Sequence record: MW822007.1
Strand: one strand, 5' to 3'
Length of the DNA: 64,000 nt
Source: Escherichia phage BF15
The notes under the pieces were generated by a model. The model was not told the origin of the DNA. It searched no databases and saw nothing but the letters and a program-made list of their open reading frames with translations. The translations under genes were made by a program, and so were the position numbers. Below are positions 2,127 through 14,592 of this stretch, piece by piece (the first letter of the stretch is position 1; every line of letters begins with the position of its first letter).

Positions 2127-2246
2127 TTATTATAATTTTTTTGTTATCAAATCAACATATGACAATAGTAAATCATTATTTTCTTCAAATATTAAAGATA
2201 ATTTATCATTAACAAAATCGCAAGGATAAAATCTATCATAATTCAT
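2127..2246 (-). pseudogene. diverged duplicate of the nrdG 5-prime end (39-codon ORF MNYDRFYPCDFVN...)
   Basis: ATG overlaps nrdD stop (ATGA); first 13 residues parallel NrdG MNYDRIYPCCFVN; the full nrdG lies 0.7 kb downstream. Confidence 0.5.
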
Positions 2247-4060
2247 TGGTGTTTAACCCTATGCATGATTTCTTTATTTTTACCGAGATTAAATCCGCGT
2301 TCGTTCGGATTTCCCAAATAACCACATGTTCTTCTTATGGTATTCATCTTTTTAGGATCAGTTTCTCCACAAATAGAACAAACAAATCCGTTTTCAGTAG
2401 GAGTCATTTCATGGGTACTTCCGCATGTAAAACATTTATCTACTGGCATATTAACACCAAAATAATCTAAATGTTGTGCAGCATAATCCCACACGGCCTC
2501 AAGACCTTTCAAGTTATTTTTCATATCAGGAAGTTCAACATAAGAAATGTGACCACCTGTCGCAATGAAATGATACGGCGCTTCACGAGAAATCTTTTCA
2601 AACGGAGTAATATTTTCTTCTACTGAAACATGGAAACTGTTAGTGTACCAACCTTTATCGGTAACATCTTTTACGCTTCCATATTTTTCCGTATCGAGTT
2701 TACAGAAGCGATAACAAAGGTTTTCAGCAGGAGTCGAATATAAACTAAAAGCAAATCCAGTTCTTTCAGTCCACTGTTTAAGATGAGCATTCATTTTAGT
2801 TAAAATTTCCTGTCCAATATCACGACCGACAAGAATATTCAATTCGTGAATACCAATGTATCCTAAAGACACTGAACTTCTACCGTTTTTAAATAACTCA
2901 ATTATGTCGTCATCAGGTTTAAGACGAACCCCGAATGCACCTTCTTGGTAAAGAATAGGAGCAACAGTCGCTTTAACTCCTTTTAAGGAACTAATTCTAC
3001 ACATCAAAGCTTCAAAACATAAATCCATTCGTTCATTAAATAGCTCAACAAATTTCTGTTCATTGAACTGTGTTCCAATATAAGAATCTAACGCGATGCG
3101 AGGAAGATTCAGTGTTACAACACCAAGATTATTACGTCCATCAAGAATTTCATTACCAGTCGAATCTTTCCATACGCTCAAGAAACTGCGGCAACCCATT
3201 GGAGAAACAGGAACAGATGAACCAGTGATAGCTTTATTGTTCTTAGCCGAAATGATGTCAGGATACATCCTTTTGCTTGCACACTCTAGAGCAAGCTGCT
3301 TAATATCATAGTTCGGATCGTCTTTATAAAGATTAACACCCTCTTCAACGAACATAACAAGCTTAGGGAAAATAGGAGTTATTCCATCACGACCAAGACC
3401 TTTAATACGATTTTTCAGAATTGCTTTCTGAATCATTCGTTCAGTCCAGTCAGTTCCCGTACCAAATGTAATTGTTACAAAAGGTGTTTGCCCGTTTGAA
3501 CTAAAGAGAGTATTTACTTCATATTCATAAGCTTGGAATGCATCGTATACGTCTTTTTCTGTTTTAGATTGAGCATAATTCAACGCATCAGCGATTTGCC
3601 ATTTTTCTGCATCCTCAATATGTTTTGCATAGGTGCGTTTAACATAAGGAGAAAGTACTTTATCTACATTCGCAAAAGTCGTTCCGCCGTATTGGTGAGA
3701 AGCAACCTGTGCAGTAATTTGTGCCATAATTGCAGTAGCAACGCCAATTGATTTAGGAGTTTCAATCTGCGCATTACCGAGCTTAAATCCGTTCTCAAGC
3801 ATTCCTTTTAAATCTACTAAACAGCAATTAGTAAATGGAAGAGCAGGGGAATAATCAATATCATGGAAATGAATAATTCCGCTTTCATGCGCTTTCATAA
3901 TAAAAGACGGGACCATATTTTTGGCAATGTGTTTAGACACAATACCAGCCATAAGGTCCCGTTGAGTTGGAAAAACACGAGAATCTTTATTAGCATTCTC
4001 GTTTAAAAGGTCTTTATCAGTTTTATGAATCAATCCTTCAATTTCTTTTTCAATTGTCAT
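2243..4060 (-). CDS. nrdD: anaerobic ribonucleoside-triphosphate reductase, intron-less
   Basis: 605 aa continuous ORF; glycyl-radical enzyme; C-terminal Cys cluster CFTCGS...CSICG. Confidence 0.9.
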   Translation of the reverse strand: MTIEKEIEGLIHKTDKDLLNENANKDSRVFPTQRDLMAGIVSKHIAKNMVPSFIMKAHESGIIHFHDIDYSPALPFTNCCLVDLKGMLENGFKLGNAQIETPKSIGVATAIMAQITAQVASHQYGGTTFANVDKVLSPYVKRTYAKHIEDAEKWQIADALNYAQSKTEKDVYDAFQAYEYEVNTLFSSNGQTPFVTITFGTGTDWTERMIQKAILKNRIKGLGRDGITPIFPKLVMFVEEGVNLYKDDPNYDIKQLALECASKRMYPDIISAKNNKAITGSSVPVSPMGCRSFLSVWKDSTGNEILDGRNNLGVVTLNLPRIALDSYIGTQFNEQKFVELFNERMDLCFEALMCRISSLKGVKATVAPILYQEGAFGVRLKPDDDIIELFKNGRSSVSLGYIGIHELNILVGRDIGQEILTKMNAHLKQWTERTGFAFSLYSTPAENLCYRFCKLDTEKYGSVKDVTDKGWYTNSFHVSVEENITPFEKISREAPYHFIATGGHISYVELPDMKNNLKGLEAVWDYAAQHLDYFGVNMPVDKCFTCGSTHEMTPTENGFVCSICGETDPKKMNTIRRTCGYLGNPNERGFNLGKNKEIMHRVKHQ

Positions 4061-4571: not shown

Positions 4572-5057
4572 TCAAGTATTGTAAAACATTTGATGCAATC
4601 GCTTATATTGCCGAATCATTTGGTCAGAAAAAGAAATTTGAGTTTCAAGCCATTCAATGTATTCTGCGGCAGCTTGCATCAGGTTACCTTCATAGCCATC
4701 GTTATTTTCTTGCGCAGCTAATTTAGCTAATGCGTATGAAATACGTTCACCTTGAAAATCGGCTTTAGGCTTCTGAACAACTTGATTAGTTCGCTCTACA
4801 ACTTCTTCAATTTCGCCATTTTCGACTGATTCAGTATTCCACAAACACCAATACGTAATTGGCTTATCGTAGATGTTAATAATCTTTCCGTCGGAAAGTT
4901 CAATTTCAATAATTCCAGTATCAGGCTCTATATCATCTTCACATTCTTTTGCAAGTTCACGAACTTTAAAGACAGTACCTGCACTAAGTTCCGGCCAGTA
5001 ATTACATAGCCCTGTATCAGCACGATTAATTCTAAACCACTTATCTACTGTAATCAT
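4572..5057 (-). CDS. hypothetical protein in the 49.x/pin position
   Basis: 161 aa ORF between 49 and nrdC; assignment by position only. Confidence 0.35.
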   Translation of the reverse strand: MITVDKWFRINRADTGLCNYWPELSAGTVFKVRELAKECEDDIEPDTGIIEIELSDGKIINIYDKPITYWCLWNTESVENGEIEEVVERTNQVVQKPKADFQGERISYALAKLAAQENNDGYEGNLMQAAAEYIEWLETQISFSDQMIRQYKRLHQMFYNT

Positions 5058-5179
5058 GTCCCATCTCCATATTAATTAAGTCATTTATCGTTGGTTCATT
5101 ATATACTGTTTCTTCATCAGTGTAAACCGGTTCTTCCGGCTCTGGCTCTACAGTTTCCCATCTAGCCGCCCACCAGGGT

Positions 5180-5374
5180 TTAACCCCGAAGCTTATTAAG
5201 TTCTTCATAATCAATCCAGGATTCTAATCCTGATGGCAAATCAGATTCAATTTCCCAAAGAAGTTCTTCAATTTTATGAAGACGATCTAATTCTTCAACA
5301 GGAATAGTAACCATTGATGGAGCTCTTGCTGCACTAATATCGTATATCATATTTACCCCAGTTTGACCATGCAA
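5180..5374 (-). CDS. hypothetical protein
   Basis: 64 aa ORF, acidic. Confidence 0.35.
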   Translation of the reverse strand: MHGQTGVNMIYDISAARAPSMVTIPVEELDRLHKIEELLWEIESDLPSGLESWIDYEELNKLRG

Positions 5375-5568
5375 TCACCGTATTTCCACTTAGAAATAGA
5401 CTTTTCACCATTAGAATAATAAACTTCGAGTTTAGCACGATTATTTTTAATTTGAATAACCTTGGCTGTCATCAAAGTTCCATACCCATAGTAAACTGCA
5501 ACTTCATCACCTACATATATCGCGCTTCCACGATAATCATGGATATAATCAGTTCCTTCGAGCATCAT
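5353..5568 (-). CDS. hypothetical protein
   Basis: 71 aa ORF abutting nrdC. Confidence 0.4.
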   Translation of the reverse strand: MMLEGTDYIHDYRGSAIYVGDEVAVYYGYGTLMTAKVIQIKNNRAKLEVYYSNGEKSISKWKYGDCMVKLG

Positions 5569-5829: not shown

Positions 5830-6072
5830 TTATTCCTTAATTCCTAGTACTTGTTTAAAAGTCTCGTCGTAATCAAGACTTTGGCCCGTTTGTTCTTTAT
5901 GTTTGTATATAATATCACTTACTTCTGATAGCATATTTTTATATGAACGAGTTAAAGCAGATTTAAGCACGCTGTATCTATCAGGAAATTTACCGTGTTC
6001 ATTATAATAAGCTATTGCTAATTCACGGACTGTCTTTTCAGCAGCCTCCATATATTCTTTACGCTTGGTCAT
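5830..6072 (-). CDS. hypothetical protein
   Basis: ORF trimmed to internal Met (MTKRKEY...); the longer track ORF overlaps the next gene. Confidence 0.35.
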
Positions 6073-6376
6073 TTTCTTCTCGGTCAAATCGGTGTTTACA
6101 ATGGCGACATTTATAACGAAGATTACTAGTCTGCCAATGGACCAATTGCACCTGTTCAGTTCCACATTCAGGGCAATTAGGAACGTTTTTAGAAGCGCGT
6201 TCGCGGCGTTCAACCATAACCATAATGGCATCCCAAGCAGGAGGTTTAAAGTCTAAATCGTCACAACCATGAATCTTTCCACGCATTTCCAAATCGTCTT
6301 CTTCACCAGCCATAATAATTTTAATTAGACTAGAATTACTTGAAGCTGCAATGTCTTCTAATAGACGCTTTTTCAT
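6059..6376 (-). CDS. zinc-ribbon protein
   Basis: CPECG...CRHCKH four-Cys motif at C-terminus. Confidence 0.45.
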
Positions 6377-7299
6377 TTCAATACCTCAATAGCATTACGT
6401 AAACCATTTGCTTTTGCATTAAGAGCTTTTAACAATTTGGTGTGTTCTGCAATTTGGGCTTCAACTTCAATCAAACGAGCATTGAGATATTCGCGTTCTT
6501 CTTTCATAGTATCATTCCCATGATTGGATTTTGGCGTAGGTTTAAATTCACTAGGGTCCTTTAATTTAATAACAAATTTAGTTTCAAACAGTGAAAGACC
6601 ATAATTCTTATTATCATCAAAGGATTTGACTACATCCATATCAGATAATAACACGCGCAAATTATAAGCCAAAGAACTAATAGTTTCATTGTGTTTATTA
6701 GCTTCGCGTGGTTTCATATACGGAAGATTTTTATATATTTCATGCGGAGCACAAATGATAATTGACAATTCAAATTGTCCATTCTGGGACGATGGAGTGA
6801 ATTTAGCCGTAACCCAGTCTTTTACATTCACATTAATAGTACGGTTATCACCATGACAAAACAGTCTACGAGAATGCTTAAAAAGCATATTCACGTTATT
6901 ATTGAATTCGTGTGAAAATTCACTAGCAAATTTTTCTTTACTATCTTTAGAAAACCATTCTTCTAAATAAGTTCTTTTCACGTCGTTAATAATATTAAAT
7001 GTAACAACATTAGCATTTGATACATTAGTCTCAATGTAGCTTGGATACATAAATTTTTTAACATTATTAACAGCTATCACAGAAGATAGTAATCGGGAAC
7101 GTTTGAACCACTCGAGCAAAGAACCAAGAGAATGTGAATACGCATTTTGTGTATCTTTACAAATATGGTTTTCCCATCCAATATAGTCTAAAAAATCACG
7201 AAGAATATTATTGATTACTGCTCTGTGTCCTATCTGATAATTACGATGTTTAGTAATAAGACTGTCAAAATAATCAATATAATGTTTACGTGTTTTCAT
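6373..7299 (-). CDS. paralog-array protein 1, C-terminal coiled coil
   Basis: 308 aa; starts MKTRKH; C-terminal 45 aa heptad-rich ([37 protein letters not shown]). Confidence 0.6.
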   Translation of the reverse strand: MKTRKHYIDYFDSLITKHRNYQIGHRAVINNILRDFLDYIGWENHICKDTQNAYSHSLGSLLEWFKRSRLLSSVIAVNNVKKFMYPSYIETNVSNANVVTFNIINDVKRTYLEEWFSKDSKEKFASEFSHEFNNNVNMLFKHSRRLFCHGDNRTINVNVKDWVTAKFTPSSQNGQFELSIIICAPHEIYKNLPYMKPREANKHNETISSLAYNLRVLLSDMDVVKSFDDNKNYGLSLFETKFVIKLKDPSEFKPTPKSNHGNDTMKEEREYLNARLIEVEAQIAEHTKLLKALNAKANGLRNAIEVLK

Positions 7300-7351
7300 G
7301 TTCTTCTCACTTGGTTAATGATTTATACTCCGAGCCATCCTTGGCTTTAAA

Positions 7352-8353
7352 TTACTTAATTAACTGTAAAGCTTGTTCCAGACGATCAAGACGATTAACA
7401 GATTCTTCCCAAATCTTTTTAGCCTGCTCATATTCTTTCTGCGCTTTATTAGAAATTTCTAGAACTTCCTTATAAGATTTTTCTAATGCAATAACTTCTG
7501 GACGAATTTCTATCGGTTCAGGTGAATCATCAAGACATTCCATTAGTTCCTCAAGGGTAGTTTCTTCTTTAGGAGTATTCACAATTTCATCACATTTTTG
7601 TTGATAAATTTCTTTATCAGTAGGTGAGTACGCGCACTTTACTTCACGAAGACTAATTACAATTTTATATCCTTCCCAACCGCATATATTCTTAAAAGGA
7701 TATGTATGAATATTTTCTACTGTTTCCATACAAAGTAATGCGGTCTCTAATTGACGAGTTATAGTGCTAGCAATTGAGAAAAATTTATTAATATTCTTTT
7801 GGTTAGTTTCTGGTGTAAAAAATCCATAATTCACAAAAATAGCTACTTTATTTTTATCAAGTTCATATTCTTTTATGATAATCATATCAGAAGCCAAAGG
7901 ATGAATTTGACGATAATCGCCATAACATAATTTAGAAGCTGATTTTAGAATTTGCTTCTTAAAAAGTCTGAAATTACTAATCCAACGACGAGTAAAAATA
8001 TTCTCAGGGTCTTCTTTGACATTAAGATGATAAGAATTAACATCACCGAACCAATTATATCCTACTACATCTTTGGTTCGTTTAATTTCTTTCCCAAAAT
8101 TACCAAGAATATCCCGATTAACCAAATATGAAAGAAGACGAGACTCTTTAAAGGTTTTCTTGATAACATCTTTATCTACACGGCTAGAAATTTTACGAAT
8201 TTCATGAATAAATTTAGTAGAAGAAACAATACTTGCATCAACACTATTGAGCCATTGATTGATAATAGAAAGAACACTATTTTGGCCAAACATCGGTATA
8301 GCTTTATCATCAATAACGCTATTGAATGATTTGATATATTCGTTACGAGTCAT
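7352..8353 (-). CDS. paralog-array protein 2, C-terminal coiled coil
   Basis: start set at ATG with GAGGAG SD (MTRNEYIKSF); shares QILKSASKL motif with protein 3. Confidence 0.6.
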   Translation of the reverse strand: MTRNEYIKSFNSVIDDKAIPMFGQNSVLSIINQWLNSVDASIVSSTKFIHEIRKISSRVDKDVIKKTFKESRLLSYLVNRDILGNFGKEIKRTKDVVGYNWFGDVNSYHLNVKEDPENIFTRRWISNFRLFKKQILKSASKLCYGDYRQIHPLASDMIIIKEYELDKNKVAIFVNYGFFTPETNQKNINKFFSIASTITRQLETALLCMETVENIHTYPFKNICGWEGYKIVISLREVKCAYSPTDKEIYQQKCDEIVNTPKEETTLEELMECLDDSPEPIEIRPEVIALEKSYKEVLEISNKAQKEYEQAKKIWEESVNRLDRLEQALQLIK

Positions 8354-8380
8354 ATTAATCTCCTCAGTAGAAAGTAAGAA

Positions 8381-8410
8381 CATTATACCACATCCTTGTG
8401 ACGAAGTAAA
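8381..8410 (-). promoter_or_regulatory. early-type promoter (GTTTAC, 15 nt, TGGTATAAT)
   Basis: spacer contains CAAGGATG; -35 overlaps stop of the upstream paralog. Confidence 0.45.
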
Positions 8411-9439
8411 CTAGTTTAGTGCATTTAGTGCATTGTTCAGTTTAGAACGTTGCTTTGTCAGATTTTGAACCCTTGACTGAGCTTGTTCTAACGCCTTTTC
8501 AGCTTCTAGCACTTCATTGGTCGCTTTAACGAGTTCATCATCTACTGCCTTAAGGGACTTCTCAATCGCATCCGCGTGCCATTTTTCAACAGGTTTAAGA
8601 CTCGGATTTTCAATAGGAAGAAAATTCACTTTATTGAATTTCCATGCATCCTTATTACCTGAACTATACATCCAAAATTTAGGATCGTTTGATAAGTAAT
8701 TGGATAAATTTAAATTTAAGTTATCTTGTACTTCTTGCTTTTTCTCTTGTGTAACTTCGTCCTTTCTCAAAAAATCATATTTAAATGAAACGATCATATC
8801 AAGTTCATATGATGTTGTATCTAACTTAAATCGTTCAAAACGAGGTAAAATCTTAGATTGAACAGCAGCAACAACATCCATATACTTAAATGCTTCTGTT
8901 AGCTGTGACTTAAGACATTCACAAATTGAAAGAGAATTTTTTGTATTAGGTTTAAAGCTAATTCGTGCAGTTCTATTATTTTCTTTTAACGGTCTTACTT
9001 CCATCTGAAGAGTATAACCATCAAATTTCAGATTCTTTAAGTTAATATCAGAACCTTTTAATCGACTAGCAGTAGACAAAATTTGCTTTAATTGTCTACG
9101 GAACAGAGCAATAAATCTCCATTCAATACGATAATGATTTGGATTGAAAAATCCAGATGATAAATCGACCTTACTTTGACCAACGCCTTGAACAAATAGA
9201 GGATTTTTATAATCAATAGTTTTACAGAAATCGGTGAGCTGTTCACGAGCAGTCATTTGAGTAATATACCCTGCTTTACTAAAATTACGCACCCATTCAC
9301 TGCTATTCGTATACTTAAAGTGATGAATAACACGATTAACTTTATCGGGGTCTAAATTATTTTCACACAAAAATGTCATAACATCACGAGTATAGCTGGC
9401 ATTACGAACCATATCTTCAATTTGAGAACGAGTTTTCAT
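8411..9439 (-). CDS. paralog-array protein 3, C-terminal coiled coil
   Basis: 342 aa; starts MKTRSQ; motif QLKQILSTASRL; C-terminal heptad tail. Confidence 0.6.
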   Translation of the reverse strand: MKTRSQIEDMVRNASYTRDVMTFLCENNLDPDKVNRVIHHFKYTNSSEWVRNFSKAGYITQMTAREQLTDFCKTIDYKNPLFVQGVGQSKVDLSSGFFNPNHYRIEWRFIALFRRQLKQILSTASRLKGSDINLKNLKFDGYTLQMEVRPLKENNRTARISFKPNTKNSLSICECLKSQLTEAFKYMDVVAAVQSKILPRFERFKLDTTSYELDMIVSFKYDFLRKDEVTQEKKQEVQDNLNLNLSNYLSNDPKFWMYSSGNKDAWKFNKVNFLPIENPSLKPVEKWHADAIEKSLKAVDDELVKATNEVLEAEKALEQAQSRVQNLTKQRSKLNNALNALN

Positions 9440-9447
9440 GGTGTTCC

Positions 9448-10353
9448 TTAAGATTTAAGTAAATCAACAATTTTAATTAATTTTTCACGTTCAGATTTAG
9501 CTTTACTACTCAGTCCAGATAGTCTGAAAATTTCATCGTCATATTGTTGAATAGAAATATTCAGCTCTTCAATCTGTTTATTAAAATAATCAATTTGTTC
9601 AGAATGTTTTTCGTTACTACGAACTGGCACAGGTTTTGTAGGCAATTTAGTTGAACTGGATTCATCCGGGCGATAAATTAAAATACAATTTGAACCAATT
9701 GGGCATTTAGCACCAGACACATATTCTAGTGTTCCAGCTTCTTTTAAAACTTCAAAAGCTAAACAGAGATGATGACCCATATTGACATAATCTGTAGAGT
9801 GAGCTCTGACGTAATAATCATCTCCACGAGTACTAAATTTAAAGCATTTAAGGTCTTCTGTATTATTGGTCTTAAAAATCATTTGTTTATCTAGACCTTT
9901 AGCTAATCGAGCGCCCAATGCTAATAATCGTCGTTGATTTTCCCACAAATCCGCAATCATTTGATCGAATGATAATTTCGGCATTAGTCGACCATAAAGG
10001 TCATATCCTTTATTATAATTACGAAGGATTTCACTCGCATTAATACGAGACAATGCTCCAATTTTATTAAGGGCTTTCATAATGCGATTAGATAAACTCA
10101 TTCCAGATCCGCTTGTTCGCTGTAAATGTTTTTCTAATCCAAAGCCAATATCAACTTTAAACTTATCTAAAATTTCGGCATGAACATCTCTGTCAATAAC
10201 ATTCAAATCCAAAGTTGGGTTAAATCTATGAAAAAATTTATCTGGCTCTCCACGACGAAATACAGTCCATTCATTCATCATTTTTTTATTAACTAAAGAT
10301 TTAATTACTGCATTGACATTATTAATTACTACTGACATATTTTCCTCACTCAA
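9448..10353 (-). CDS. paralog-array protein 4, C-terminal coiled coil
   Basis: 301 aa; C-terminal coiled coil; 8-nt gap to protein 3. Confidence 0.55.
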   Translation of the reverse strand: MSEENMSVVINNVNAVIKSLVNKKMMNEWTVFRRGEPDKFFHRFNPTLDLNVIDRDVHAEILDKFKVDIGFGLEKHLQRTSGSGMSLSNRIMKALNKIGALSRINASEILRNYNKGYDLYGRLMPKLSFDQMIADLWENQRRLLALGARLAKGLDKQMIFKTNNTEDLKCFKFSTRGDDYYVRAHSTDYVNMGHHLCLAFEVLKEAGTLEYVSGAKCPIGSNCILIYRPDESSSTKLPTKPVPVRSNEKHSEQIDYFNKQIEELNISIQQYDDEIFRLSGLSSKAKSEREKLIKIVDLLKS

Positions 10354-10747
10354 TTTTACTAATTACGTGGAATAAGATTGAACAGACTATATAAGTACCA
10401 CATATAGATTGAACTAATGCCATTCCAAAGAACCAAACAATATTATCAAACCATGTCTGTTTTACGTCGAAAGGACGTAAACTTACAGTAATATTATCAC
10501 CTTTTTCTATTGAAGAATACATCTCTGGGGAAATATATTCACTAAATCTATAACCGTCTTTGAGTTCATATACGGCAATAAACGATAAACTAGACCCCTT
10601 TCCTTGTGTTCCTGTAATAGTATTAACTACAGTAACATCATAATCTTTATAATGCATATAATCATTAATTGCGTAATAACCATATGCAACTACTACACAT
10701 AAACAACATATCAATAAATTCAATCTTTTAATTATCAACCGTTTCAT
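10346..10747 (-). CDS. membrane protein
   Basis: N-terminal TM (LLICCLCVVVAYGYYAI) and C-terminal TM; overlaps start of paralog 4. Confidence 0.5.
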   Translation of the reverse strand: MKRLIIKRLNLLICCLCVVVAYGYYAINDYMHYKDYDVTVVNTITGTQGKGSSLSFIAVYELKDGYRFSEYISPEMYSSIEKGDNITVSLRPFDVKQTWFDNIVWFFGMALVQSICGTYIVCSILFHVISKIE

Positions 10748-10776: not shown

Positions 10777-10799
10777 ATTATACCATCCTTGGTATAAAG
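10777..10799 (-). promoter_or_regulatory. early-type promoter (TGGTATAAT with AAGGATGG spacer)
   Basis: upstream of the 10346-10747 operon. Confidence 0.4.
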
Positions 10800-10802
10800 C
10801 GG

Positions 10803-11330
10803 TTATGCGAGTACCGTCTTTAACCGTTCTTCAAACTTCCGAAGAGTATTTTGGCGTTCAGCTCTTTGCTTTTTGTAAGTTTCAATACGCTCTGAAATGA
10901 GAGTGTATCGTTCATTTACTGATTCTTTCATAAAATCAGGAATTTCACGAGAAGCTTTAATCTCGTCAAATTTATCAATAACAGCTTGCTCTTCAGCAAT
11001 TAAGTTATCATACATCAAAATATCTTTCTTGATGAACTCAATATCTTCTTGAGTTACACGAGATAATTTAGATGCTTTATCCTTTTTGTACTGTTCATTA
11101 GTATCACGAGACCAGTGTAATGTACGATTTTTATTCGTATTTTTGTAAATTTCTACAATACCAATCTCATCGATAATAACGATCCAATTCCAACGAGATT
11201 TGTAAATTTGCCCTCCGTCAACCGTGATTTCACCTCCGATTGAGATGTCATTAAAGAACTTGCTTTGCGCTTCAGATTTAAATTTACCATCATTGTAATT
11301 TACCAAGTTGAAAATATCTTTAGCGTTCAT
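10803..11330 (-). CDS. hypothetical coiled-coil protein
   Basis: start set at ATG with GGAGG SD (MNAKDIF); the track ORF extends through the promoter. Confidence 0.5.
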   Translation of the reverse strand: MNAKDIFNLVNYNDGKFKSEAQSKFFNDISIGGEITVDGGQIYKSRWNWIVIIDEIGIVEIYKNTNKNRTLHWSRDTNEQYKKDKASKLSRVTQEDIEFIKKDILMYDNLIAEEQAVIDKFDEIKASREIPDFMKESVNERYTLISERIETYKKQRAERQNTLRKFEERLKTVLA

Positions 11331-11775: not shown

Positions 11776-12495
11776 TTAGGATTCTTCTAAATGTCTTTTC
11801 TGAAAAGTTGATACCATACTACGATACGGTTCATTTGGATATCCGTGTTTTATAGCTTCCTTTGTAAATTTTCTCCATCCACATTTAGTTTCTTTCCAAA
11901 GCTCGAATAATTCATCTTCATACTGCCATATAGTTAAATGAGAACGCTTTGCAGCTTTAATTCCATTAATATGCTTTTCTTTTACTGCAGGATTGCTTAG
12001 TTTCTTTTTAATAATATTACTAACTTTTCTAACAAAAACCGGGTCCTTATATCGTTGCGAAGTTTTTATTGAAGTGTTTAATTTAGCTTCCGGCGTGGAT
12101 GTGACCTCTTTCATCTTTTTCTTCATATGCTGTATATGATTAGGATTTTTCCATAAATTTATAGAATGCTTTTTGCATTTTATCCTAGTTTCATCTGCAA
12201 CCTTTCCTCCTTCACCCCCGTATGACAGGTTAACACAGTTTTTTCCATATTTCAATTTACCTGCCATGATATATAATATTTCAGCTTGTACCATTTTATC
12301 ATAATTATCAAAAACTTCTAAAACCGTTTTTGACAATATGTGGTCATTTGACACTTTTACACGTTCTATATAATTTCCACTACCAACATACGAATCATTG
12401 ATATTATTAGTTATATGTCGACCATAATAATATTTCTTAACGCCAGTCTTTAAATTTAATATTTCAGTTTTATAGATAGTAAAATATTTTTTCAT
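11776..12495 (-). CDS. GIY-YIG homing endonuclease (Seg-like)
   Basis: N-terminal GIY-YIG-like (FTIYK...YYYGRH), shared GGEGG motif with the segB-like gene at 29672. Confidence 0.6.
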   Translation of the reverse strand: MKKYFTIYKTEILNLKTGVKKYYYGRHITNNINDSYVGSGNYIERVKVSNDHILSKTVLEVFDNYDKMVQAEILYIMAGKLKYGKNCVNLSYGGEGGKVADETRIKCKKHSINLWKNPNHIQHMKKKMKEVTSTPEAKLNTSIKTSQRYKDPVFVRKVSNIIKKKLSNPAVKEKHINGIKAAKRSHLTIWQYEDELFELWKETKCGWRKFTKEAIKHGYPNEPYRSMVSTFQKRHLEES

Positions 12496-13460
12496 TTTAA
12501 CAATACCGTTTCAGCGATTTCTTCCCAATAGTTTTTGTCGGTCATAATAAAGTCAGCAAGATAAAGAGCAGTACGCAGTGAAACATTACGTAAACGGTTA
12601 ACATTGACTTTCATCCATGATAATGCTTTATAAGTTTCTTCATCAGAAAGACCGCGTTTTTGCATCATGTCAGTTGAAAGAATAACATCTTCAACCCTGA
12701 CCATAATTTCTTCATTAGTGTGAACACCCAAATCTAAATAAACTGAGCGGGACACTAATGCTTGTAAATGTGGAGCAAGTTTAGTACCACGGTCTAATTC
12801 GCGGTCAATATCAACGTTTGTGATAAAAACAATCGTTCCTTTAAATTCAAACTCACGGTCAATGCCTTTTTCTTCTAAGTAAGAAGATGCAGTGCTCCAG
12901 CAGACTTTACGGGTCTCTCCAGTGTCCAGAGCAGCTTTCAGAAGATTAAGAATGTCCATATCAGAGAAAACATCCACATCATCAATCAAAAGGACAGAAT
13001 TCTCTTCACGATTATTCCAAAGCTGCTCATAAAGACCGATACCAGAGATTTTACCATTAATGCTTTTATATTCAATGTATCCAATATCATTTGCTTTATT
13101 TAAAGCTTTATCTAAAGAATACGTTTTACCAATACCCGCCGCACCAGAGATAATTAATGAACGAATATTTCCATTAATAATACCATTCGTCATCATTCCC
13201 ATAACATTAAATCTTTTATTAATGCGGGTTTTCATATCTTCATATGATTCTTTAACTTCTTCAACTTTTACACCATCATATGAAATATCTGATTTGTAAA
13301 CCCAAACACCGCGACGTTTACCGTCAATTTCAACAAAAACTTTACCATCTCCTTGTGCATCTACCGGAGCATTATCTGGGAACCATTCGCCTAAGAGCTC
13401 AAAAGTTCCAGAGATTTCTTTACCGAAGTAGATACCCTTATTGATAGTTACAGTTTTCAT
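12492..13460 (-). CDS. P-loop ATPase
   Basis: Walker A GAAGIGKT, Walker B LLIDDVD; start trimmed to MKTVTINKG after promoter. Confidence 0.6.
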   Translation of the reverse strand: MKTVTINKGIYFGKEISGTFELLGEWFPDNAPVDAQGDGKVFVEIDGKRRGVWVYKSDISYDGVKVEEVKESYEDMKTRINKRFNVMGMMTNGIINGNIRSLIISGAAGIGKTYSLDKALNKANDIGYIEYKSINGKISGIGLYEQLWNNREENSVLLIDDVDVFSDMDILNLLKAALDTGETRKVCWSTASSYLEEKGIDREFEFKGTIVFITNVDIDRELDRGTKLAPHLQALVSRSVYLDLGVHTNEEIMVRVEDVILSTDMMQKRGLSDEETYKALSWMKVNVNRLRNVSLRTALYLADFIMTDKNYWEEIAETVLLK

Positions 13461-13496
13461 TTTATTCTCCAAATCCGTATCAGTAGTTGATAGTTG

Positions 13497-13527
13497 TATA
13501 GTACCATAAAGCTTTATGCTTGTAAAC
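13497..13527 (-). promoter_or_regulatory. early promoter (GTTTAC, 15 nt, TGGTACTAT)
   Basis: same conserved block as at 11359. Confidence 0.5.
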
Positions 13528-13548
13528 CGTTCTGTGAAAAAATTTTTG

Positions 13549-13576
13549 AAATAAAAAAGGGAGCCCGAAGGCTCCC
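13549..13576 (-). terminator. rho-independent terminator
   Basis: GGGAGCC-TTCG-GGCTCCC then TTTTTTAT on minus strand after stop of 13579-14592. Confidence 0.7.
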
Positions 13577-13578
13577 TA

Positions 13579-14592
13579 TCATTTATAATAACTTCGGTGG
13601 TTTTCAAGATAAACCCTCTCAAGGAAGTCATCCCAGAAACTCATGTCTACTTTTTGCTGCATACCGTTCTTAGAAGCTTTAATGGATGCTGCTTCTACTT
13701 GATCGACAACATCTTCCAAAAACTCTTGAACAGTTTTAAATGGATGTTTACCCAACTTCACGTCGAGAATAAATGGAGCGTCTTGAAGTGGATAAATCAA
13801 GTCGCCAGTTTTGTAAATTTCCAATAGTTGAAGTCCACCACGACAAGCATGACTCAGAGCTTTCCAGTCAATACCTTCGTTGGCTTCGGCCTTACGAGCG
13901 CGTTCACCGTATTCAGCATCAAGTTTATTCAAAGACTGCTTAAGCTCAATAAGAGAAAGCGTTGTCTGATATTTACGACCCAACACAGTATAGAACGTTT
14001 GCGGGCCTGTTTTCTCATGATTATGGAACACCCATTCACAGAATTCGTTTTCTGGAAGACGATGCTTAATATCTTCAACTTTAGTGCGACGCTGCTTAAT
14101 GGAACCATCTTCTTGGTAATCAACCCACTGGTCAGGGATTTGATTAACTACTTTCAATACATCACGCAATGCAGCCAAACGAGAACCCTTGACACCGTAT
14201 TTAGAAGCTTGCTTGCGGACATATCCTAAATAGGATTTCATGTTAGTCGTATAGAACCGAGAACGATTGTCTTGGATAAATTTCCATACATCAGGTAAAT
14301 CAGATTTAACCACTAGTTCAGGTGGAGTGTGAAGCATATCCAATGCTACAGTTTCACCATCTGCTGCTAATTTAAAGAAATACTTAAGACTGTATAGTTC
14401 ATGGTCAATATCATCTTTAGTGTTTTTAGATGATGTGTTGTTAGTGTTTTTACTCATATGCTCTTTAACATTTCCGATAAGAATATCGCGAGCAGGAGGA
14501 ACAAAGATTTCTTTAAAATCCACATCAGATTCTGGAGTAGAAGTTCCATAAAGATGACTACCAAAATAGCTTTTCATTACTGTTTTCATCAT
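13579..14592 (-). CDS. polymerase-beta-fold nucleotidyltransferase-like protein
   Basis: N-terminal GSHLYGTSTPESDVD (GS-x9-DxD signature); 337 aa. Confidence 0.5.
   Translation of the reverse strand: MMKTVMKSYFGSHLYGTSTPESDVDFKEIFVPPARDILIGNVKEHMSKNTNNTSSKNTKDDIDHELYSLKYFFKLAADGETVALDMLHTPPELVVKSDLPDVWKFIQDNRSRFYTTNMKSYLGYVRKQASKYGVKGSRLAALRDVLKVVNQIPDQWVDYQEDGSIKQRRTKVEDIKHRLPENEFCEWVFHNHEKTGPQTFYTVLGRKYQTTLSLIELKQSLNKLDAEYGERARKAEANEGIDWKALSHACRGGLQLLEIYKTGDLIYPLQDAPFILDVKLGKHPFKTVQEFLEDVVDQVEAASIKASKNGMQQKVDMSFWDDFLERVYLENHRSYYK

Follow-up and report, generated by a model that had tools for sequence, protein, structure and literature searches.

Four consecutive minus-strand genes in the nrdC-tk region of Escherichia phage BF15 raise the question of whether they form a single family and, if so, what that family does for the phage. 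They lie in a 64,000-nucleotide (nt) stretch of sequence record MW822007.1, the whole of which is referred to here as the window. A preliminary description had taken them for tandem, diversified paralogues with a common coiled-coil tail, had located them in the plastic nrdC-tk region (where they are indeed found), had guessed at an anti-defence role, and had left open whether T4 carries orthologues at this locus. It does: the genes are the counterparts of T4 nrdC.3, nrdC.4, nrdC.5 and nrdC.6. We conclude from profile comparisons, supported by predicted structures, that the four are one superfamily of tandem paralogues, and one of them, nrdC.5, has a published anti-defence phenotype in T4. Overall, the earlier interpretation is partly supported, and for nrdC.5 it had already been published. 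The locus itself was also already known; what appear to be new are the family relationship of NrdC.3-6 and the map of their domains.

Comparison of the 3,981-base span with phage records returned 506 matches, with T4 covered in full at 95.8% nucleotide identity and the best match reaching 97.1%; judged by its sequence, the window is that of a T4-like phage (Tequatrovirus). The T4T record annotates the counterparts as nrdC.3, nrdC.4, nrdC.5 and nrdC.6 in a gene order identical to that of the window, with nrdC.2, nrdC.1, nrdC, pin and gp49 flanking the array on one side and nrdC.7 to nrdC.11 and mobD on the other. Amino acid (aa) identity to T4 is 91% for nrdC.3, 98.5% for nrdC.4, 98.5% for nrdC.5 and 98% for nrdC.6; in both phages the four follow one another in that order from nrdC.2 to nrdC.7. 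The four genes are long-annotated T4 open reading frames (ORFs) and not new ones:

6373..7299, minus strand: nrdC.3 orthologue (gene 1), ORF of 308 aa; tail at residues 264-308 (nt 6376-6510)
7352..8353, minus strand: nrdC.4 orthologue (gene 2), 333 aa, MTR start; tail at residues 286-333 (nt 7355-7498)
8411..9439, minus strand: nrdC.5 orthologue (gene 3), 342 aa, match to DUF7235; tail at residues 284-342 (nt 8414-8590)
9448..10338, minus strand: nrdC.6 orthologue (gene 4), 296 aa, ATG start; tail at residues 242-296 (nt 9451-9615)

The preliminary description had given these as four minus-strand genes of 301-343 aa across 6373-10353. The four consecutive ORFs stand, as does the remark that three of the four proteins begin MKTR or MTR; the true span is 6373-10338.

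Existing family databases divide the four. The nrdC.3 and nrdC.4 products both match phrog_1435 (E-values of 4.5e-101 and 1.2e-167, each over profile positions 1-334 of 334), while nrdC.6 matches phrog_2257 at E 1.1e-151. The nrdC.5 product matches the Pfam domain of unknown function (DUF) DUF7235 (PF23882) with 418.7 bits against a cut-off of 30, over profile positions 1-307 of 307; genes 1, 2 and 4 (nrdC.3, nrdC.4 and nrdC.6) gave no match to this model. The local Pfam copy gave no match for nrdC.3 or nrdC.6, the PF26897 and PF26899 models themselves not having been run on the window proteins. Close homologues (83-98% identical) of nrdC.3 and nrdC.6 bear the precomputed labels PF26897 (NrdC.3 type) and PF26899 (NrdC.6 type), respectively, and it is very likely that the window proteins belong to the same two families. 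We found no paper describing a family relationship among NrdC.3-6, and the databases searched divide them among three unrelated-looking DUFs.

Pairwise BLASTP was insufficient to relate the four proteins: nrdC.3 and nrdC.4 alone gave a match, and a weak one (23% identity over 173 aa). Profiles, built from database homologues and 17 related loci, link all of them, with nrdC.6 the weakest. HHalign paired the nrdC.3 and nrdC.4 families at 98-99% probability, and the two also merged in jackhmmer searches with bodies from which the tails had been removed. The merged nrdC.3+4 profile matched nrdC.5 at 91-97% (E 9e-7 in local mode, 8e-11 in global mode), the local 91% match being confined to the body (nrdC.5 residues 55-200), and matched nrdC.6 at about 71% (E 4e-5, 196 colinear columns). 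A direct comparison of nrdC.5 with nrdC.6 reached 19-40% only. The profile alignments were colinear and mutually consistent, with similarity in the bodies running through a motif helix and a beta-beta-alpha-beta-beta core. The motif helix aligned in all four (NMLFKHSRRLFCHGD, FKKQILKSASKLCYGD, FRRQLKQILSTASRLKGSD and NQRRLLALGARLAKGLD), and a later helix, which terminates in MDVV, METV or LEYV and is followed by a KP-rich linker and then the tail, kept its register throughout. The block LFKKQILKSASKL / LFRRQLKQILSTASRL that had been noticed in proteins 2 and 3 is real and is aligned in the profile comparison, with degenerate forms in the other two proteins (NMLFKHSRRLFCHGD and NQRRLLALGARLAKGLD). 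We conclude that the superfamily has three deep branches, {nrdC.3, nrdC.4}, {nrdC.5} and {nrdC.6}, with the link to nrdC.6 the weakest. A MAFFT alignment that mixed the nrdC.3, nrdC.4 and nrdC.5 families put the MDVV helix in the wrong place and was not used for structure prediction.

The same architecture emerges from structure prediction, which covered the NrdC.5 and NrdC.6 monomers; the layout of NrdC.3 and NrdC.4 was taken from the colinear profile alignments. The AlphaFold2 models of NrdC.5 and NrdC.6 (predicted local distance difference test scores of 74.7 and 78.9) present the same elements in the same order: helices at the N-terminus come first, then a helix pair, two strands, one helix and two more strands, and a disordered linker leads to the C-terminal helix. 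In a Foldseek search of predicted viral structures, the NrdC.5 model matched NrdC.6 of phage JS10 (E 7.8e-5, probability 1.0), and both models matched a common set of uncharacterised proteins of 300-335 aa at 11-17% identity, from Enterobacter phage IME523, Klebsiella phage Mineola, Pectobacterium phage PM2, Acinetobacter phage Acj61 and Yersinia phage fHe-Yen9-01. The two share a predicted fold. Flexible linkage between the domains keeps the template modelling (TM) scores low (0.3-0.5), and the structure matches are therefore support, not proof. The common layout that had been proposed for the four genes is borne out, and from these models and the profile alignments it appears to comprise a variable, basic, helical N-terminus, an alpha/beta core, a disordered linker and six to eight heptads running to the exact C-terminus. 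The core appears to be a two-layer alpha/beta domain in which a helix pair carrying the motif RRxLxxLxxAxRL-xG is followed by beta-beta-alpha-beta-beta.

Among solved structures, the core of the NrdC.5 model resembled the RNA polymerase alpha / Rpb11 dimerisation domain over 60-75 residues and phage tail terminator or tail completion proteins over 100-113 residues (about 3 Å). Equally good scores came from de novo designed alpha/beta proteins, so the core is a two-layer alpha/beta sandwich of a generic type, and membership follows from neither resemblance. The preliminary description had recognised no enzymatic motif, and the searches agree: Pfam gave DUF7235 for nrdC.5 only and nothing functional, while NCBIfam, PADLOC and PDB sequence searches gave no match above threshold and no enzyme signature.

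One further gene, nrdC.8, was considered as a fifth family member and found no support from sequence profiles. Its product (175 aa, window 10803-11330) likewise ends in a long helical stretch, and a 175-aa protein of Klebsiella phage KPV15 turned up as a weak match in each of the two structure searches (E 3.3e-3 and 0.45). NrdC.8 might be a truncated family relative; the structural hint is weak, and the sequence profiles do not support it.

The heptad-rich helical tail claimed for each gene was confirmed in all four by shuffling, and in NrdC.5 and NrdC.6 by the models as well. A tail was counted when continuous heptads with hydrophobic a and d positions extended across at least four heptads, in the best-scoring register. 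All four proteins have such a tail, over 45-59 residues, with hydrophobic fractions at a/d of 0.85, 0.86, 0.88 and 0.75 for nrdC.3 to nrdC.6; the observed values were equalled by 13, 1, 0 and 0 of 2000 shuffles, respectively. The tail of NrdC.5 is modelled as one 58-residue helix (284-341), and that of NrdC.6 as two helices (242-272 and 278-295) with a break at LSGLSS. In all four the heptad run extends to the last residues, and the C-termini fit the pattern L-x-x-[AIV]-[LIV]-x-x-[LI]-[KN], which matches 4 of the 88 window ORFs, exactly these four. The pattern was built from the four proteins, so only its recurrence elsewhere is evidential: it was seen in most orthologues checked from three other genera, and was missing from two of those and from the Yersinia phage. 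In every orthologue lineage conservation is highest in the tail and lowest in the N-terminus or the core.

What these genes do is known from experiment for one of them. A T4 clone that had evolved with deletions lost the ability to infect strain ECOR17; it infected ECOR17 again once dsr1 had been deleted from this host, and MG1655 carrying cloned dsr1 was protected from it (Srikant, Guegler and Laub, eLife 2022, PMC9391042). Dsr1 is a sirtuin-type defence protein that depletes nicotinamide adenine dinucleotide (NAD+), and T4 nrdC.5 expressed from a plasmid restored plating of the deletion clone on Dsr1 cells (PMC9391042). The guess of an anti-defence effector family is therefore proven for one member, nrdC.5 (PMC9391042). 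Our literature search found no other functional datum for any of the four genes, and thus none for nrdC.3, nrdC.4 or nrdC.6. Window gene 3 is the orthologue of T4 NrdC.5, in the same position and with a full-length DUF7235 match, and its 98.5% identity to the T4 protein suggests that it too would have anti-Dsr1 activity. Window genes 1, 2 and 4 are distant paralogues of T4 NrdC.5, with less than 25% identity and no published function. NrdC.5 is accordingly not an orphan: T4 has three paralogues beside it, other T4-like genera carry relatives at this locus, and all of these appear to have the same core and a coiled-coil tail.

The neighbourhood is in keeping with such a role. T4 can lose the block nrdC.1-6 and survive on a laboratory host (PMC9825161), and nrdC.3-nrdC.6 are non-essential accessory genes. 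The region around the array in T4 is an anti-defence island, in which gp49.2 inhibits OLD (PMC13096335) and nrdC.1 inhibits Septu (bioRxiv 10.1101/2025.11.20.689424). The window itself is without gp49.2, the published OLD inhibitor, and without gp49.3; gp49.1 alone is kept (region 5041-5568), and two small ORFs replace the missing pair, at 5180-5374 (phrog_3402, labelled antitoxin) and 5353-5568 (DUF7205 / phrog_2112). Its nrdC.1 orthologue (80 aa, 97.5% identical to T4) occupies 5833-6072, and the 133-aa ORF listed at 5830-6231 is over-extended.

The family is restricted to T4-like phages (Straboviridae), where its members are ancient, fast-diverging tandem duplicates present in different combinations:

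Tequatrovirus: nrdC.6, nrdC.5, nrdC.4 and nrdC.3
Dhakavirus (JS10) and Gaprivervirus (VR25): nrdC.6, nrdC.5 and nrdC.4
Mosigvirus (PhAPEC2): nrdC.6-like, nrdC.5-like (RB69p097) and nrdC.3-like genes
Mosugukvirus (Pectobacterium phage PM2): a single nrdC.6-type gene at the equivalent position, adjoining nrdC.2
Tegunavirus (fHe-Yen9-01): two members, dispersed

Identity between genera is about 68% for NrdC.8, about 50% for NrdC.6, 42-50% for NrdC.4 and 22-28% for NrdC.5. A profile of the NrdC.5 family searched against 1.84 billion representative proteins found 13 relatives, and no full-length cross-family match was among those 13. Across eight Tequatrovirus genomes, the ratio of nonsynonymous to synonymous substitution rates (dN/dS) was 0.17-0.29 for the four genes, compared with 0.006-0.05 for gp49, nrdC, nrdC.8 and nrdC.9. 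The four genes are under relaxed constraint; gene-wide positive selection was considered and rejected at these values.

Rearrangement has been frequent as well. The nrdC.3 alleles of Tequatrovirus fall into two classes, more than 90% and about 62% identical to the window copy (6373-7299), as compared with related loci L004 (6305-7234), L005, L008 and L009. The diverged alleles hardly differ in the first ~70 residues or in the tail, while their central core is about 49% identical, which suggests that the alleles arose by recombinational core swapping. Salmonella phage Manna (L004, 5215-6252) carries an in-frame fusion of NrdC.6 residues 1-262 to NrdC.4 residues 251-333, with a shared DEI microhomology at the joint and with nrdC.5 and most of nrdC.4 lost. 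In protein P0056 the middle part of NrdC.5 is joined to the C-terminal half of NrdC.3, and Sf25 gp220 (P0093) is an NrdC.6 in which residues 177-258 are duplicated. In a metagenomic Tequatrovirus nrdC.4 is split into two ORFs of 193 and 158 aa (L009, 6971-8003), and the gene matches the phage T2 record PV648363 in two pieces, suggesting that it is frameshifted and decaying in some phages. Finally, an 803-base-pair (bp) metagenome contig encodes a 173-aa protein (P0202; L018, 120-641) with a near-exact NrdC.5 tail on an unrelated N-terminus of 120 aa, for which the phage collection gave no match. This protein is either a genuine exchange of modules or, the contig being so short, a chimeric assembly.

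Taken with the Dsr1 result, we consider it moderately probable that nrdC.3-nrdC.6 encode a diverged paralogous family of coiled-coil counter-defence proteins that act as stoichiometric, oligomeric binders. Stoichiometric binding is suggested because no catalytic motif is present. On this reading the proteins would bind host defence proteins non-enzymatically and serve in host range and counter-defence. The coiled coil would bring about a dimer or higher oligomer and so increase avidity for oligomeric defence proteins, while the fast-changing body would recognise the target. NrdC.5 would block Dsr1, and its three paralogues would block other defence proteins or other variants of Dsr1. The family relationship makes nrdC.3, nrdC.4 and nrdC.6 three concrete counter-defence candidates, and the domain map, with its variable body and conserved tail, a guide for dissecting how NrdC.5 acts on Dsr1.

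Several observations weigh against this reading. An experimental phenotype exists for one of the four genes only, and that rescue does not demonstrate direct binding. The models are of monomers, and in its model the putative oligomerisation tail of NrdC.6 folds as a helical hairpin. By sequence the link to nrdC.6 is unconvincing; it consists of the HHalign score of about 71% together with Foldseek matches of flexible models at TM 0.3-0.5, and the dN/dS values are below 1. Moreover, the proteins are basic (whole-protein isoelectric point (pI) of 9.15-9.29 for three of the four, with a net charge of +9 for the NrdC.5 core), and bodies with a pI above 9 would also be compatible with nucleic-acid binding. 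An idea that they might be DNA mimics was rejected on account of the same basic character.

The strongest competing explanation starts from that charge. The four could be host-takeover factors acting on the nucleic-acid or transcription machinery of the host, such as RNA polymerase, which is a target of many T4 pre-late proteins. NrdC.5 would then protect against Dsr1 indirectly, by keeping its activating signal from forming and not by binding Dsr1. The published nrdC.5 experiment, being a rescue and not a binding assay, fits this account too. However, a conserved target would not account for 22-28% identity between sister genera or for the frequent loss and fusion of members, and the block is dispensable on laboratory hosts; we regard the explanation as unlikely.

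A second possibility is that the core mimics a virion neck or tail protein of the tail-terminator or tail-completion fold, and that an early excess of it occupies the sensor domain of defence proteins. In the Foldseek search of viral models, tail completion, terminator and connector proteins appear at E about 1e-2, and there is a precedent in DSR2, for which two reports describe activation by a tail tube protein and inhibition by the competing phage protein DSAD1 (PMC10981675, PMC11087589). Set against this, the scores are at the level of fold and not of homology, only the NrdC.5 model was compared with solved structures, and the core also matches RNA polymerase alpha and designed proteins; we consider mimicry decidedly unlikely. 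It can be extended to a more speculative scheme, to which we attach little probability, in which NrdC.3-6 are a modular decoy platform: a tail-terminator-like domain would be shown as a coiled-coil oligomer before the real structural proteins appear, each paralogue would blind a different sensor (Dsr1 in the case of NrdC.5), and the set would have diversified by duplication, core swapping and in-frame fusion.

The weakest alternative, that the four are not homologous and gained similar tails independently on unrelated bodies, their likeness being compositional, is highly improbable and largely refuted: it can appeal to BLASTP scores that are not significant beyond the weak nrdC.3-nrdC.4 link, to the three separate families kept in Pfam and PHROGs, to weak HHalign scores for the tails by themselves and to the unrelated body that bears the NrdC.5 tail in P0202, but nrdC.3 and nrdC.4 merge even without their tails, the local match of nrdC.3+4 to nrdC.5 lies entirely in the body, the motif helix and the helix before MDVV hold the same register in every alignment, and the predicted cores of NrdC.5 and NrdC.6 share a topology, each model matching the relatives of the other.

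The counter-defence reading can also be set beside systems already described. Like DSAD1 of phage SPbeta, which inhibits DSR2, NrdC.5 lacks a catalytic motif and disarms an NAD+-depleting defence protein with a SIR2 domain. The analogy is functional, since no sequence or fold similarity between DSAD1 and NrdC.5 was found and Dsr1 and DSR2 are different proteins; binding of DSR2 by DSAD1 is structurally shown, whereas binding of Dsr1 by NrdC.5 is only presumed. With gp49.2 (anti-OLD) and NrdC.1 (anti-Septu) the family shares its island, a probable pre-late expression, dispensability and a narrow, T4-like distribution; those two differ in being small (about 80-106 aa), unrelated and devoid of a coiled-coil tail. 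Tail terminator and completion proteins (lambda gpU, T5 p142, SPP1 gp17-like, DUF3168) are approached in fold-level scores only, with no sequence similarity, and neither the homology-level fold similarity nor the late expression among structural genes that would place the four with them was found. Unlike tail terminators, the nrdC genes have early- or middle-type promoters, lie in an accessory region and carry additional N-terminal and coiled-coil parts.

The timing of expression may be read from the following elements in and beside the array:

8382..8410, minus strand: T4 early-type promoter for nrdC.4, with GTTTAC, an N17 spacer and a TG-extended TATAAT (consensus scan and sequence)
7300..7351, minus strand: nrdC.4-nrdC.3 intergenic spacer, with promoter-like TATAAA (7327-7322), a single AAGGATGG (7335-7342) and a small inverted repeat (7330-7344)
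10777..10801, minus strand: middle-promoter-like site upstream of nrdC.7, with cGCTTTA (MotA-box-like), 12 nt containing AAGGATGG, and TATAAT
10346..10747, minus strand: nrdC.7 orthologue, a predicted membrane protein of 133 aa outside the family, 95% identical to T4 NrdC.7

Judged by the published T4 consensus sequences, 8382..8410 is a predicted early promoter and 10777..10801 a putative middle promoter with a MotA box; the TATAAA at 7327-7322 may also serve as a promoter. The first of these settles a start site. The ATG at 8383 falls within the -10 hexamer of the nrdC.4 promoter, and the MTR codon at 8353 follows a GAGGAG ribosome-binding site; gene 2 therefore starts at 8353 and not at 8383, which corrects its product from 343 to 333 aa, as the T4 annotation has it. 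Gene 4 likewise becomes 296 aa instead of 301, from the ATG at 10338, which has GAGGAAAA upstream. The gaps between nrdC.7 and nrdC.6 and between nrdC.6 and nrdC.5 are 7-8 nt, with no promoter seen between these genes in the consensus scan, and nrdC.7-nrdC.6-nrdC.5 are probably one transcription unit with nrdC.7 as its first gene. Based on the promoter consensus sequences and these short gaps, the array is probably covered by two or three pre-late transcription units, and the promoter types suggest that all four genes would be expressed before the late genes. The AAGGATGG spacer that had been described as a feature of promoters here is not enriched: the window has 4 such sites where 1.75 would be expected, a count reached in 9 of 100 shuffles.

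Elsewhere in the window, a 239-aa ORF of the homing-endonuclease family phrog_314 (E 3.8e-30) stands at 11776-12495, between nrdC.9 and nrdC.10, at a site where T4 has a spacer of about 100 bp only. Because of it, the ORF listed at 12492-13631 over-extends nrdC.10, whose true span is 12495-13460. The NrdC.10 protein gives weak matches to AAA / STAND-type NTPases (AAA_14 and nSTAND3, E about 1e-4, under the Pfam cut-offs). Lastly, nrdD (2243-4060) is a single uninterrupted ORF of 605 aa, where the T4T record joins two pieces around the I-TevII intron.

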